DNA from: a virus
Taxonomy: Duplodnaviria > Caudoviricetes
Strand: one strand, 5' to 3'
IMG/VR virus record: IMGVR_UViG_3300049182_000044
Coordinates: 192,001-256,000 of that record
DNA length: 64,000 nt
Positions 37,424-56,288 of this stretch are shown piece by piece. A program made the translations under genes and the position numbers. A model generated the notes under the pieces. It was not told the DNA's origin and searched no databases. It saw only the letters and a list, made by a program, of their open reading frames with translations. Position 1 is the first letter of the stretch. Every line of letters begins with the position of its first letter.

Positions 37424-39007
37424 CTACGCCTTATGTGCTGCAATGGCGGATTTAACGAGGATCTTCAATTCCTGTTCGTTCATGACCCTGCGGAAGGATC
37501 TGCGAAACTTCATATCGACATCTACGAACTCTTCATTGTGCCCGGATACCAGCAAATGCGAATTTTCGTGAATCGCCAGGTCGAGTAAGTCGCCGACCAA
37601 AAACGATTTATCGAAGCTTTGCGGGTTACACAGCACGAGAATATCCGAGCCGTCGCTGCTTTGTTTTACATTTAATCCCTCCGTCTCCTTTGCAAACACA
37701 AAACCTGTGACAATGCGCTTACCGTGTCGGTAGAACGCTCCCTTTTCAAAATCAATGTCAGCAACTGACTGGCCTGGACCGAACTTGTCCAGCACCACGC
37801 CGTTGTCGAACACCCACTGACAGCCGCACTGCTTACCGAACTCGCTAAACAGTGTTCCGTACACCGCTACCTTCCATGCGAAAGCCAGCGACTGAACCCA
37901 ACCCTTGCGCAATGTGCTGAGAACCTGTGCGACGCTAACCGTGCCGTCTTCGCGATCCTTACCGCCACGCCCAACGGTGTTCTGAATACGAAGGTTGAAA
38001 TTTTTCGGAAATGCGTCGTTCACCATGTAACGCAATTCCTCCTCCAGCGTTTCGTACTTGCCGCCTGCGATACCCAGGCCTTGCTCACCGTTACTTGCAG
38101 TTTCACGCTTTTCACTATCCAGAACTAAGGGTGCTGTGAAATTCAGCGTGATGTCTACGGTCGTGCCGCGCTTGAACGTGTGCCGATCATCAACCATCTT
38201 CTGAATCAGCTGGTTCAAATGATTGGCGTACATGCCGCGCAATGCATCCCGATTCGATGTGAGGATCTCGCGGGTATCACCTTCGAGTTCCAGCACGCCG
38301 ACAAAACCCGTCGAACCTGTTCCGTACACGCGCTGCACGAACATCGGCAACCCGCGTACTGACACGATCACGTTTGACGTACCGCCCTGAGTCTCCTTGA
38401 ATGAAAACATGCCCAGCGATGTAGGCACCGCGTACTCGAAGTCCTCGAACTGCGCTTTCAACTCCACGCCGTTCACCGTAATCATGCATGAACGCTGCAG
38501 CGCCATGAACGATGCGAAGCGATGCAACCTTGAGATCCATTCTTCGACCGTCCAGCCCTCGAGATCGAGTTCGACGACTGACGTTGTTCCTTCCTTCCAC
38601 TGCTTGCAATGAGTGATAGTGTAATCACCGCCATTGCCCTCGACCAACTGGTCTTGTGTGCGAATGCGATACGAACGGTGCGCGAAATACAGCAGCACCT
38701 TTGCGTAACCAAACCCGCCGATACCGCCTTCGGGTTTGTATGAACCGCCCATGCTCAAGAGCTTGTTCACCAAAACGTCTTCCGTCATGCCTGCGCCATT
38801 GTCGCTGCACTCGATGTAAATCGTGCCGCGATTTTCGATCAGGCCGATCTCGAAGTCGATACGACTGGCCTTCGCGTCGTAGCTGTTTTGGATCAGCTCT
38901 CGAAACAATGCCCAACGCCAGTCGCTGTACTCAAGCTTCGACTTGGCGAAGTATTCGTTGGGTAATGCAACCTTACCAGCGCGTGTGATTTCGTTAATTG
39001 CGTTCAT
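37424..39007 (-). CDS. GHKL (HSP90/MutL-like) ATPase with C-terminal HExxH
   Basis: RELIQNSYDA, DNGAGM, GGIGGFG; AIHENSHLL; start MNAINE with SD GGAGG. Confidence 0.75.
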   Translation of the reverse strand: MNAINEITRAGKVALPNEYFAKSKLEYSDWRWALFRELIQNSYDAKASRIDFEIGLIENRGTIYIECSDNGAGMTEDVLVNKLLSMGGSYKPEGGIGGFGYAKVLLYFAHRSYRIRTQDQLVEGNGGDYTITHCKQWKEGTTSVVELDLEGWTVEEWISRLHRFASFMALQRSCMITVNGVELKAQFEDFEYAVPTSLGMFSFKETQGGTSNVIVSVRGLPMFVQRVYGTGSTGFVGVLELEGDTREILTSNRDALRGMYANHLNQLIQKMVDDRHTFKRGTTVDITLNFTAPLVLDSEKRETASNGEQGLGIAGGKYETLEEELRYMVNDAFPKNFNLRIQNTVGRGGKDREDGTVSVAQVLSTLRKGWVQSLAFAWKVAVYGTLFSEFGKQCGCQWVFDNGVVLDKFGPGQSVADIDFEKGAFYRHGKRIVTGFVFAKETEGLNVKQSSDGSDILVLCNPQSFDKSFLVGDLLDLAIHENSHLLVSGHNEEFVDVDMKFRRSFRRVMNEQELKILVKSAIAAHKA

Positions 39008-39021
39008 GTCTGCCTCCCCGA

Positions 39022-39162
39022 TTAAGTGCGACGAAGAACGTAAGCCACAGTAACGCAATAGCGTTTCTTCCCATGCTTGCGAACCCAGTGACGGCACAGG
39101 TCCGCCGAACCTTGCTTCATGACCTTGCCGTAGAACGTATCGAGTGCGACGAATGTTTTCAT
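39022..39162 (-). CDS. Small basic protein (46 aa), not in ORF track
   Basis: SD GAGG; MKTFVALDTFYGKVMKQGSADLCRHWVRKHGKKRYCVTVAYVLRRT. Confidence 0.5.
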   Translation of the reverse strand: MKTFVALDTFYGKVMKQGSADLCRHWVRKHGKKRYCVTVAYVLRRT

Positions 39163-39213
39163 AATGACCTCAACTGTTGGGTGAATTTCCTACAGGCGAA
39201 TTTCAAACTACAA

Positions 39214-39231
39214 GCGGAGCCGAAGCTCCGC
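39214..39231 (-). terminator. UUCG hairpin in early leader
   Basis: GCGGAGC-TTCG-GCTCCGC. Confidence 0.5.
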
Positions 39232-39325
39232 CCAAATGGACAACATACATAGGTATTCATTGAAATTCCCTACCTTTGAACCTAATGGTTCTGCGAATCA
39301 TGCAGTGCAGATCCCCTACGTCTAC

Positions 39326-39354
39326 ATTATAACATGAAAAATCGGAAACGTCAA
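39326..39354 (-). promoter_or_regulatory. sigma70 promoter
   Basis: TTGACG-17 bp-TATAAT. Confidence 0.85.
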
Positions 39355-39472
39355 CGAATACGGGGTCACGTGACCTGCAACCCCGTATGGCGCTTCAATG
39401 ACAGGTTTGAAGTTTTATCACTTCATTATACCGATTCCCTTTATGGTACCTGCCACCCTAATGCATTAGTAC

Positions 39473-40048
39473 TTAATGGTGATGCCGCACTTTTGCAGAA
39501 GGCTGTTTCAACGTCAAGCTGTGCTTCGACACCTTGCAGGAGCGACGATGCTCCGTTAAGGTCTCTAGTGCCGATGACGCAGGTTTTCTGCTTCGGCTAC
39601 GAGAAGTAACAGACATTTCGTTCTGTTCCTTCAAGGGCTTTTCGCCCGGGATCGAAGTGGTCATCTCACTCGCCATTTCAAAGTCTCCCCAGGTTTCATC
39701 CGCCTCGTTCAGGATTTCCATCCCTTCGCAATCGAAGACGAAGCCTTCCTCGACCTTCTTGGCAACCGCCTTCGACAGCCTTTGCAGGACGTCGGAGATG
39801 TTATTGCAAACAGTCTCGGAGTTCTTCACGTTCAACGGCGTTGAGCGAGAATGAGTGAATGTCACTCGAGTGAGTAGGTACTGCTTAGTCTTGATGACGT
39901 ATTCAGCATGAATGATGCATTTTGCTGAAGTGGTTTCGGAAATGGCACGTTTAAGAAATGCCACTCCCAGGCTGATGCGGGTATTTGCGTACATGAGGAA
40001 CTCCAGGTTCAGATGTGCGCGACCCATCCCGAGGCTCCGGTCGCGCAT
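39473..40048 (-). CDS. Hypothetical protein (start uncertain)
   Basis: 191 aa; weak SD; central AVAKKVEEGF segment is WGR-like. Confidence 0.45.
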   Translation of the reverse strand: MRDRSLGMGRAHLNLEFLMYANTRISLGVAFLKRAISETTSAKCIIHAEYVIKTKQYLLTRVTFTHSRSTPLNVKNSETVCNNISDVLQRLSKAVAKKVEEGFVFDCEGMEILNEADETWGDFEMASEMTTSIPGEKPLKEQNEMSVTSRSRSRKPASSALETLTEHRRSCKVSKHSLTLKQPSAKVRHHH

Positions 40049-40094
40049 GGACTTTTACGATGATTAACATTTTGTATTTTCTTCCTTAGTATAG

Positions 40095-40380
40095 ATACTA
40101 TCGGCTACCGCCACATCGGGGCATCGACCGCTCGGTCGCCATACCCGTGGGCTCTAGCAGTAACGGATTGTACCAACGGCTGGTTCACATCCCGTAATGA
40201 GCAATAGAGGGGATGCCGATCCTTAGTCAGTGAACGCCAGTCTTCTTCGTTATAGTCTCCAAGAGAAACGAATAGCGTTAGCTCTTTTCATCAATGACTT
40301 ACTTCCAGTTCAGTAAACCGCCGCCTCGTACTGAACCTTCGTGCTGCAATCTTTAGATCGTCTTATTCGATATGGCCTCC
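40095..40380 (-). ncRNA. Candidate structured non-coding RNA
   Basis: About 300 nt with no credible ORF and four or more stems; upstream AACCGTAAA motif; no family recognised. Confidence 0.4.
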
Positions 40381-40405
40381 CTTTCTTTACGGTTAATGGG
40401 TTGAC

Positions 40406-40939
40406 TTACTTCTTCTTGCGTTTGGCCGGCTTCACCTCCTTAGGTTTGGCCGGTTTGATACGAGCGGCGTAGCGGAACTTACCGCGCACCATGAGCTTCA
40501 AGCTAAAGCTATCGAGGAACTCAGGAGTAAGCCCTGTCTCGCTGTACACGCGAGTAATCCTGAAGCCTGCCGCCACGCCCTTCTCGAAGGCGTTCAGCGT
40601 CAGCTTGCTCTTGTACCGATACTCGCCGTCCTTAGTCTTGTACTCAACGTCATACAAGGGCGCTTCGAGCTTGAAATACGGAGGTACGAGCCAGCGTGTG
40701 CCTAAAGCCTTCGCTTCAGGATGTTGAACGAAGCGCATTGCCTTGAACGACTCAGGCGGCGTTTCGTTCGTACCGACTTCAACGATGAAGTTCAACTGCG
40801 CCTTCACCAAGGTGCGAATGTTTTCGATTGAGTATTCAATACTCGCAATACCATCCTCCCTTGCTGGGCAGTATTGCTGCTCTTCGAGTTTCAGTACCCG
40901 ATCAATCTTGAGCAGGTTGTCAGTGATGTACAAGATCAT
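40406..40939 (-). CDS. Hypothetical protein, paralogue of 55767-56288
   Basis: MILYITDNLLK N-terminus shared. Confidence 0.7.
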   Translation of the reverse strand: MILYITDNLLKIDRVLKLEEQQYCPAREDGIASIEYSIENIRTLVKAQLNFIVEVGTNETPPESFKAMRFVQHPEAKALGTRWLVPPYFKLEAPLYDVEYKTKDGEYRYKSKLTLNAFEKGVAAGFRITRVYSETGLTPEFLDSFSLKLMVRGKFRYAARIKPAKPKEVKPAKRKKK

Positions 40940-40951
40940 GTTATTACTTTT

Positions 40952-41371
40952 CTAGTCAGTCGATTTGATCCTGCACACGCGAGGACCAGTCTTGCGGAAT
41001 GAAACAAACTTGCGCTGCTCAGACCGAACCATTAAGCGGTCGAGCTCCTTAAACGGGAACGTTACGTGCCTGAGGAAGGTCTCCTTCCCAAGCGCCTGCA
41101 TCAGGCCACGCATGTCCTTTACCTTGCGCACCAGGCAACGCGGGCTGAAATCAACCTCAAGACCATCACCGATGTACGCAACCTCTGAAGAATCCTCGTA
41201 GTAGTCGTTGGCGTGAACTTCCAACGAGGCCTTGAGGTCTTCAAATTCTTCCTTTAATGCACTGAGACGCTCAATCTCAGGCAGAAGCTCTTTCATTCTT
41301 TCGACTGCCTTCTCGACCACAACCTCGGGTCGTTTGGCGCGTTGCATTCGCTCTACCCATGACTTCTTCAT
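40952..41371 (-). CDS. Hypothetical protein
   Basis: 139 aa, SD GGGG. Confidence 0.65.
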   Translation of the reverse strand: MKKSWVERMQRAKRPEVVVEKAVERMKELLPEIERLSALKEEFEDLKASLEVHANDYYEDSSEVAYIGDGLEVDFSPRCLVRKVKDMRGLMQALGKETFLRHVTFPFKELDRLMVRSEQRKFVSFRKTGPRVCRIKSTD

Positions 41372-41392
41372 GATCGTCCCCTTGCGAATGAG

Positions 41393-41989
41393 TTAGGTTT
41401 TTGGTGCTGCAATGTCAGCGAGGACAATCGAGCGCGCCCCGTCCTTCAACCAGAAGCCGCGCCCCTCTTCAATCGGCTTCACGTAGTAGGCGAACTCAAA
41501 GTCCTGCGAGACGTCCTCGACATTGTGCAATTCAGGAATCGCATGGCGAAACGAACGCACAAATTCATTTCGCCACTGGTTCAGCGCAACCCGATGATCG
41601 CGTGTCACCATCGGTTGATGGTTGGCATCGACCGTCCACTGGCGCATCCAGCTATCAACGTGATCGCGGAACGCTGCGGTCTGACTAGGACGATCAAGGC
41701 GCACGATCTTCAACAAGCGAACGAACTGCAGACTGTTCGGATCGACGATCTGTATCCCTGCAGCTTCGGCAAAGTAATCGAGCGCGAAGTTGCGGTTGAC
41801 GAAGTACGAAGCCATCAAATCTCGAATCGTGGTTGCGAGGTCCGCAGCCGTATCGTCAGGTATACCGACTGCATCTGTCTTCAGTTCGCTGAAGTGAATC
41901 TTCGGGATTGCCTTCAAGTTTATCCCACGATTGAAGAAGGACAAATAACGCTGTGAGCCATCGAGCATGTTCAGGACGATGTGTTTCAT
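41393..41989 (-). CDS. Hypothetical protein
   Basis: 198 aa in-line ORF. Confidence 0.65.
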   Translation of the reverse strand: MKHIVLNMLDGSQRYLSFFNRGINLKAIPKIHFSELKTDAVGIPDDTAADLATTIRDLMASYFVNRNFALDYFAEAAGIQIVDPNSLQFVRLLKIVRLDRPSQTAAFRDHVDSWMRQWTVDANHQPMVTRDHRVALNQWRNEFVRSFRHAIPELHNVEDVSQDFEFAYYVKPIEEGRGFWLKDGARSIVLADIAAPKT

Positions 41990-42025
41990 GATTGTGCTTT
42001 CTTTTTCAAGGTTGTAGAGGTCTTG

Positions 42026-55766: not shown

Positions 55767-56288
55767 TTACTGATGCACCTTGCGTGTTGATTTCTTGCCG
55801 TTGCTCGCCTTCTGCATACGAGCATAACAGAAATCACCTTCCTCAACTACTTCAAGTCCGAATCGCCGGAGGAAGGATTTCTTGAATCGCTTGCTTTGTT
55901 CGGGTGCGATGCGACGTACACGAACGCCGGACTCGATTGCGTGCTTGAGTGCCTTTTCGGTCACGCCACTCTTGAATGCAACCTTGTCTTCCTTCTTGTA
56001 CTGAATCGAGTATGTTTCAGGTGCTTCGGCACGCGAAGGAACATATTCAGGTACGAACATGCGAGTGCCTTCTGCGTACAGCTTGAAGTTCAAGTGCTTC
56101 GTCGGAATCTTCTCGCCCTTTTCGAGATCGAGGACGAAACGAATGCGGTTCTGGTACAGCTTCTTGATGTTGGACTTCGAGCACTTGATCGACGCCGGTG
56201 TTTCGTGATCCCCTGCTGAGAACTCGTTCTCAGCAAGCGGCAGGACTTGGTTGACTTTCAGCAGATTGTCGGTGATAAACAGAATCAT
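55767..56288 (-). CDS. Hypothetical protein, paralogue of 40406-40939
   Basis: MILFITDNLLK N-terminus shared; SD AGGAG. Confidence 0.7.
   Translation of the reverse strand: MILFITDNLLKVNQVLPLAENEFSAGDHETPASIKCSKSNIKKLYQNRIRFVLDLEKGEKIPTKHLNFKLYAEGTRMFVPEYVPSRAEAPETYSIQYKKEDKVAFKSGVTEKALKHAIESGVRVRRIAPEQSKRFKKSFLRRFGLEVVEEGDFCYARMQKASNGKKSTRKVHQ

Follow-up and report, generated by a model that had tools for sequence, protein, structure and literature searches.

The gap between two genes of an uncultured jumbo phage that is described here in all likelihood encodes a genuine functional structured RNA on the sense strand. The RNA is kept in its position, its architecture and its key loops within a small clade of uncultured PaBG-like jumbo phages. 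A functional RNA of the phage had been proposed in a preliminary description made from the DNA letters, and this proposal is borne out, in the form of a conserved structured RNA, by covariation, strand-specific G-U pairs and a pseudoknot. The RNA is classed as a new family since no tested family matched it; conserved structured RNAs or leaders of phages as such are already known. With regard to its role, we give roughly even chances to a cis-acting structured leader or operator. Well-covarying structured RNAs without a family are rare, and earlier ones led to riboswitches, ribozymes and RNA cages. Within the limits of a small family that comes from metagenomes only, the RNA adds to the growing evidence for regulatory or effector RNAs encoded by jumbo phages.

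The window, that is the whole stretch of 64,000 nucleotides that was analysed, covers bases 192001-256000 of a 281.6-kb IMG/VR virus record. The large terminase shows 47-49% identity to the terminases of Pseudomonas phage PaBG and phage NCTB, and the source is therefore an uncultured PaBG-like jumbo phage. Essentially all long ORFs of the window are carried by the minus strand, in a one-directional array of more than 60 kb. The gene-free gap (39995-40405, 411 nt) lies between the stop of a 177-aa ORF and the downstream gene. The upstream gene (40406..40939, minus strand) encodes a protein with a Lys-rich tail, which served as the anchor for finding relatives. It belongs to no known family, as no Pfam or PHROG match was obtained, and comparison of its model with the PDB gave no convincing fold match. 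The downstream gene (39473..39994, minus strand), for which homologues exist, encodes a 173-aa protein with an N-terminal WGR-like beta-sheet domain and a basic disordered tail. The ORF listed for it, 39473..40048, is over-extended; the true start is the ATG at 39994, which is preceded by GGAG, because the homologues begin with MFANSRISLG, MSINTRVSLG or MSLNTRISLG. The local annotation is thereby corrected at two points, the start of the downstream gene and a small ORF that had been missed.

The whole RNA occupies 40094-40384 on the minus strand, in the sense of the genes. Its core measures about 245 nt, and the length comes to about 290 nt with a conserved 5' leader. The leader (40360..40384, minus strand) reads AAAGGGAGG-N3-UAUCGAAUAAGAC and is kept in nearly all relatives, across which the plan is AAAGGAGG-N3-5-UAUYGA..AUAAGAC. 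The AAAGGAGG has the look of a strong Shine-Dalgarno sequence, and no conserved ORF follows it. No consistent pairing partner of the leader was found, nor any helix closing the 5' and 3' ends, and the leader motif does not recur elsewhere in the window or the genome. The leader is followed by the hairpin H1 (40307..40337, z = -2.6 in the window), whose stem co-varies and whose conserved loop CGAGGCGGCGGU forms a pseudoknot. Next comes the P2 domain (40225..40299), which consists of an outer helix P2, a helix P2b, an internal loop, a helix P3 and a variable insert. The internal loop is a nearly invariant 7x7 loop with the 5' strand ACGCUAU (40272-40278) and the 3' strand AGAAGAC (40240-40246), the latter being AAAAGAC in one relative, L004. 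A further hairpin, H3 (40188..40215), has a conserved loop of 16 nt in the window and is present in the subfamily of the window, L002 and L008 only. The pseudoknot partner of the H1 loop, ACCAGCCGUU (40175..40184), is placed immediately 5' of P5, a long G-U-rich helix (40094..40174) that encloses the variable hairpin H4 (40119-40146) and a conserved junction CCGA. All these features are on the minus strand. The element is single-copy, as the covariance model of the P2 domain matches once in the 281-kb genome.

Relatives of the locus were found in assembled sequence data. Among GenBank phages, blastn of 39000-42000 and tblastn of both flanking proteins gave no match, and thus no cultured relative with the locus; in IMG/VR and the JGI metagenomes, searches with single proteins and with family alignments found no homologues of the flanking genes. 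Protein searches of Logan/ENA assemblies gave homologues of the 177-aa protein at 49-61% identity, and homologues of the downstream protein likewise. A gap of 258-462 nt follows the 177-aa orthologue in all seven contigs for which DNA was at hand (L002-L006, L008 and L009). Two more contigs, known from gene tables only, have gaps of 314 and 416 nt, and in every one of these contigs the same downstream gene closes the gap. The sample for structural comparison was thus eight sequences, the window and seven relatives, of which about six are independent. Two of them, L005 and L009, are reduced and lack the motif of the internal loop. Conservation within the gap is uneven. Between the window and L002, identity reaches 85-88% at the H3 loop, the pseudoknot partner and the 5' strand of P5 and is low in stems and inserts; the flanking genes are about 60-73% identical at the nucleotide level. 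An exact-pattern scan of viral contigs had a sole match, L007, which lies inside an unrelated coding gene and was rejected as a chance match.

Distant homologues (L010/L011 and L012, about 37% identity) have no such gap. In L010 and L011 the slot between the two conserved genes is filled by a 78-aa gene (L010 3015-3251; L011 1426-1662), which takes the place of the RNA. This gene shows no similarity to the RNA gap and no Pfam match, and by eye its product looks like a small helix-turn-helix protein. It may be that one regulatory device has been exchanged for another in this slot. L010 and L011 have the WGR-like gene without the RNA, and therefore the RNA is not obligatory for that gene.

The preliminary description had called for a covariation check, and its outcome is that the helices co-vary, with pairing kept while sequence changes. 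For the P2 domain, a covariance model was built from six sequences and the same sequences were then realigned; in this alignment, which leans towards the model, 94.9% of cells are paired as against 67.9% in shuffles (0/500 shuffles reach this value), and 13 of the 17 pairs have both sides changed. When the partners were slid by 1-3 columns as a control, pairing was only 29-52%. P2b and P3 were also obtained, with covariation, when RNAalifold was run independently on an ordinary MAFFT alignment. In the three closest sequences the P2 domain was mis-aligned by MAFFT, and for the second subfamily no consensus of the 3' domain resulted; these helices were therefore analysed by coordinate, and the helix boundaries outside the P2 domain were set by eye. 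For the window, L002 and L008, RNAalifold gave 22 pairs in which both partners differ between the sequences, some of them in H3, H4 and P5; H3 has three such pairs.

A permutation test was carried out in which the arms were taken by coordinate and duplex energies were calculated for every 5' arm against every 3' arm between sequences. The cognate arms outdo every other permutation for H1 (1/720), P2 (1/5040), P3 (1/120), P5 (1/5040) and H4 (1/120), and for the pseudoknot only 2/720 permutations score as well. The pseudoknot itself changes its letters in step. It pairs GGCGGCGGU with ACCAGCCGUU in the first subfamily, GGCG with CGCC in L006, and UCAGC, GCAGC or CAGC with GCUGA, GCUGC or GCUG in L003-L005. 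In L002, L003 and L004 the partner is the best pairing site of the H1 loop in the whole downstream sequence. The arms of H1 are GUUCAGUA/UACUGAAC in the window and CUGAACG/CGUUCAG in L002 and L008, that is, they are swapped. As the loop CGAGGCGGCGGU is unchanged while the arms are swapped, a simple DNA inversion is ruled out. In all eight sequences P5 and H4 together fold into a single closed hairpin (z = -2.4 to -4.0; -3.0 in the window). The anatomy is unusually clear, with an arm-swapped hairpin that keeps its loop, a co-varying pseudoknot, a 7x7 loop and a fixed gene context, and it makes the RNA directly testable with synthetic constructs, despite no cultured phage of the clade.

Four of the five stems proposed at the outset are real and can be recognised in this structure. 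The stem GTTCAGTA/TACTGAAC is H1, and is real in that its arms are swapped in L002 and L008 around a kept loop. CATCCC/GGGATG is H3, which becomes CACCUUU/AAGGGUG in L002 and L008, and GGGTAT..ATGCCC is H4 within the long imperfect P5, replaced by other hairpins in every relative. The stem that had been given as TTCGTT-TCTC divides into two parts: the outer TTCGTT/AACGAA is P3, is real and co-varies, while the inner TCTC/GAGA is specific to the window. GTTCAC/GTGAAC is not conserved, overlaps helix P2 and the pseudoknot partner, and is probably fortuitous.

The same data bear on whether the element acts as DNA. A hairpin-rich stretch without genes could be a replication origin, a packaging site or an array of protein-binding sites, and an origin had been named as the alternative in the preliminary description. 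Read as the sense strand the helices have 32 G-U pairs, and read as the antisense strand 4 (18 and 3 in P5); they alter their sequence yet keep their pairing. DNA sites conserve sequence. Neither iterons nor tandem repeats nor a turn in the cumulative GC skew were found, which speaks against an origin, and the G+C content of the element, about 51% (0.51), is equal to that of its surroundings. We therefore hold a DNA-level element to be highly improbable.

It is also to be considered whether the gap is a decayed or frameshifted small protein gene, or an ordinary spacer with chance hairpins. There is a stop-free frame of 60 codons (40287..40108), a distant relative has the 78-aa gene in the same slot, and shuffles of the whole gap fold at least as well as the gap itself (z = +0.56 for the minus and +0.99 for the plus strand). 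The 60-codon frame is without a start codon and without a homologue (tblastn gave no match), and 1-nt indels against the closest relatives, L002 and L008, break it, including its most conserved part. Such indels also occur within the blocks of the gap that are 85-88% identical. The longest ORFs inside 40095-40394 encode 27-28 aa, and thus the earlier statement that the stretch has no credible ORF stands. With no start, no homologue, 1-nt indels and no likeness to the 78-aa protein of the distant relative, the reading as a pseudogene or frameshifted gene was rejected, and the covariation and permutation results would be unexpected from a spacer or a pseudogene. The chance that the gap is either of these is accordingly very slim. 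The positive z values of the whole gap mean that thermodynamics alone is insufficient, and the support for the RNA comes from covariation and from folding at the level of domains.

A search for known RNA classes had been suggested, and it gave no family. None of the 4227 covariance models of Rfam 15, which include riboswitches, ribozymes, RNase P, 6S, pRNA, GOLLD, ROOL and HEARO, matched the window or the seven relatives at gathering thresholds. When the filters were relaxed for 39900-40500, E-values of 0.93-8.3 were the best obtained and the scores stayed far under the thresholds; no ribozyme family matched even at E <= 10. ARAGORN detected no tRNA or tmRNA in the 64-kb window. The lack of a match to tRNA, tmRNA, RNase P or a ribozyme, as first noticed by inspection, is in agreement with these searches.

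The RNA had been thought to possess its own phage promoter, and this part of the proposal found no support. The putative promoter AACCGTAAA is not conserved in the relatives L002 and L008, and the GGGAGG taken for the start of the transcript corresponds to the conserved Shine-Dalgarno-like AAAGGAGG, not a demonstrated transcription start. When the 11-mers of the gap were searched in the rest of the 281-kb genome, none recurred as a motif. A search of the genome for a single-subunit RNA polymerase (PF00940) gave no match, and the control genomes were silent in it as well. PaBG-type jumbo phages are reported to encode sigma factors that are used with the host polymerase, and not a polymerase of their own (PMC7412058). 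Simple scans, directed at promoters of the sigma-70 type and at intrinsic terminators, detected neither on the sense strand next to the RNA in the window, L002, L003 or L004, and the RNA may yet have a promoter of its own that is read by a phage-encoded sigma factor. L006 alone had a promoter-like match on the sense strand, which falls within the variable insert of the P2 domain. As no conserved promoter or terminator was found, the RNA probably lies within a polycistronic mRNA; both the co-transcription and the ends of the RNA given here are deduced from sequence.

Directly after P5 an A/U-rich stretch begins in which a small ORF starts. This ORF (39951..40070, minus strand) encodes 39 aa from an ATG at 40070. 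It has 35-56 codons in the relatives and is open in all eight sequences; gene calling gave it as a gene of 41 aa in L006. In every member the linker and the ORF start are rich in A/U. The ORF overlaps the start of the downstream gene by about 43 nt, always in the +1 frame. The distances from ATG to ATG are 76, 79, 79, 76, 70, 58, 70 and 70 nt, all of them 1 mod 3. Such length changes in multiples of three argue for translation of the small ORF. Inside it lies a hairpin, HP5 (40017..40046, minus strand), which corresponds to the inverted repeat I1 and is placed about 22 nt upstream of the ATG of the downstream gene. HP5 has an 8-bp co-varying stem, both sides being changed in 7 of 11 pairs, and its loop GGAGCCnnnGGAUG, which does not recur elsewhere in the window or genome, is conserved. 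The loop resembles a Shine-Dalgarno sequence with AUG; this AUG is not a conserved start, and a stop follows it in L003.

The 173-aa product of the downstream gene had no Pfam or PHROG match. In its AlphaFold2 model the block-mean pLDDT is 86-98 over residues 11-90. WGR domains account for all five of the best structural matches (Z = 8.9-9.9), with Z = 9.6-9.9 to those of PARP1, PARP3 and 2ra8, and the next, unrelated match has Z = 7.3. WGR domains are nucleic-acid binders, and a common fold is not proof of function. On the strength of the modelled fold, the protein probably binds nucleic acid.

The reading as a cis-acting leader is preferred because no recognisable promoter or terminator sets the RNA apart, because the RNA borders directly on the ribosome-binding region of the small overlapping ORF and because the next gene probably encodes a nucleic-acid-binding protein. 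In such a leader the 7x7 internal loop and the pseudoknot would provide a binding surface for a protein or a small ligand. Occupancy of the RNA would set the access to the adjoining A/U-rich ribosome-binding region. The access of ribosomes would in turn set the translation of the small ORF and then, via the start-codon overlap, that of the WGR-like protein. It could be possible that the WGR-like protein is itself the ligand, which would amount to autoregulation. No alternative 'off' structure that hides the ribosome-binding site of the small ORF was identified, and the same holds for an expression platform or any alternative pairing.

A leader of this kind has a well-known counterpart. The leader of T4 gene 32 is a pseudoknot translational operator that lies upstream of an A/U-rich unstructured ribosome-binding region. 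The present RNA resembles it in having a pseudoknot RNA before an A/U-rich ribosome-binding region and a gene for a probable nucleic-acid-binding protein in a polycistronic context. The succession of pseudoknot and A/U-rich region, as in an operator of the gene 32 type, is seen here, with the pseudoknot supported by covariation and the region after it A/U-rich in all members. On the other hand, the present RNA exceeds the T4 leader several times in size, its core contains several helices and a 7x7 internal loop, a short overlapping ORF intervenes before the main gene, and there is no sequence similarity. The downstream protein, which has a WGR-like fold and a basic tail, might bind its own leader and repress translation, as in the gene 32 type.

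Riboswitches offer a second comparison. Like them, the RNA is on the sense strand directly upstream of a translation start, its fold is closed by a pseudoknot, and co-varying helices surround internal-loop and junction nucleotides that are nearly invariant; a conserved, co-varying, aptamer-like fold in a sense 5' leader is what is generally expected of a riboswitch. In contrast to riboswitches, it matches no riboswitch model of Rfam, no expression platform is evident in it, and the downstream genes give no clue to a ligand.

An RNA that acts in trans is the chief alternative to the cis-acting leader. The core could be cut from the polycistronic transcript, or be made from an unrecognised promoter of a phage sigma factor, and as a stable non-coding RNA it would act alone or as a ribonucleoprotein with either of the neighbouring basic proteins, for example as a decoy, a sponge or an anti-defence RNA. 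The compact closed fold, the pseudoknot and the strongly conserved internal and hairpin loops are as in stable RNAs. The conserved 5' motif with its exposed AAAGGAGG has no ORF behind it, and both flanking proteins have basic tails, the downstream one together with a WGR-like fold. Other features speak against such a role, as no promoter or terminator brackets the RNA, no helix joins its 5' and 3' ends, it is single-copy, and it is always found directly before the same small ORF and gene. A trans-acting role is possible and in our view less likely than the leader.

Known phage RNAs show partial likeness. GOLLD and ROOL, large ornate RNAs of phages or prophages, are likewise phage-borne and pseudoknotted, and were found, as this RNA was, through a conserved ORF-free gap. 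They differ from it in size, 450-800 nt against about 250-290 nt, and the present RNA is single-copy, has no promoter or terminator of its own that could be found and matches neither in Rfam. With type III toxin-antitoxin systems (ToxI) the element shares an RNA immediately upstream of a gene for a protein of about 170 aa in a phage context. In contrast to ToxI systems, there are no tandem repeats and no terminator between RNA and gene. Tandem Repeats Finder detected no tandem direct repeats of the type III antitoxin kind (about 34-45 nt) in 39800-40600, and short two-copy direct repeats are the only direct repeats at the locus. Among the matches listed for the 173-aa protein there is no chain of the ToxN/AbiQ type, though absence from this list does not exclude the fold. 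The idea of an antitoxin mimic that had been put forward earlier thus finds no support in either the repeats or the downstream protein.

A bolder form of the trans-acting role was also considered. The RNA, once freed from the mRNA, might assemble with the WGR-like basic protein, and perhaps with the 177-aa protein too, into a novel type of ribonucleoprotein directed at nucleic acids of the host or the phage, for instance as an anti-defence decoy, with the 7x7 loop as the protein site; or the same core might be the aptamer of a new riboswitch class. We consider this proposal, in either version, unlikely.

The position of the RNA between cistrons, in a one-strand gene array of more than 60 kb, brings in an element that acts on the transcript itself. 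It could be a site of processing, by self-cleavage or by an RNase, or an antitermination element of the put type for read-through of the array. A conserved internal loop with a pseudoknot would be in keeping with this, and the long G-U-rich P5 is similar to substrates of RNase III. Sites for processing or antitermination are usually found repeatedly, whereas there is one copy of the RNA in 281 kb. It matches no ribozyme family even at the permissive limit, and there is no downstream terminator that would have to be overcome. An element of this type is therefore quite improbable.

Some minor observations were made at the locus and its flanking genes. An exact 11-nt direct repeat, in the sense strand GAAGUAAGUCA, occurs at 40295-40305 and 40402-40412, so that one copy is in the linker between H1 and P2 and the other runs across the stop of the upstream gene. 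It is absent in the relatives and was treated as fortuitous. The 5' arm of H1 (AGGUUCAG, 40331-40338) is perfectly complementary over 8 nt to 40005-40012, a site 318 nt apart and just upstream of the Shine-Dalgarno sequence of the downstream gene. This complementarity is found in the window only, is missing in L002 and L008, and was likewise treated as fortuitous. A paralogue of the 177-aa gene, of 173 aa and about 34% identity, is present at 55767..56288 on the minus strand; the next gene follows it after only 29 nt, and no RNA lies between them. Giant proteins, most of them of 1400-5200 aa and the longest of 5153 aa, carry 4-13 repeats of a segment of about 30-50 residues to which the 177-aa family profile is likewise matched. 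Judging from this match, part of the 177-aa phage protein may be a widespread repeat module.
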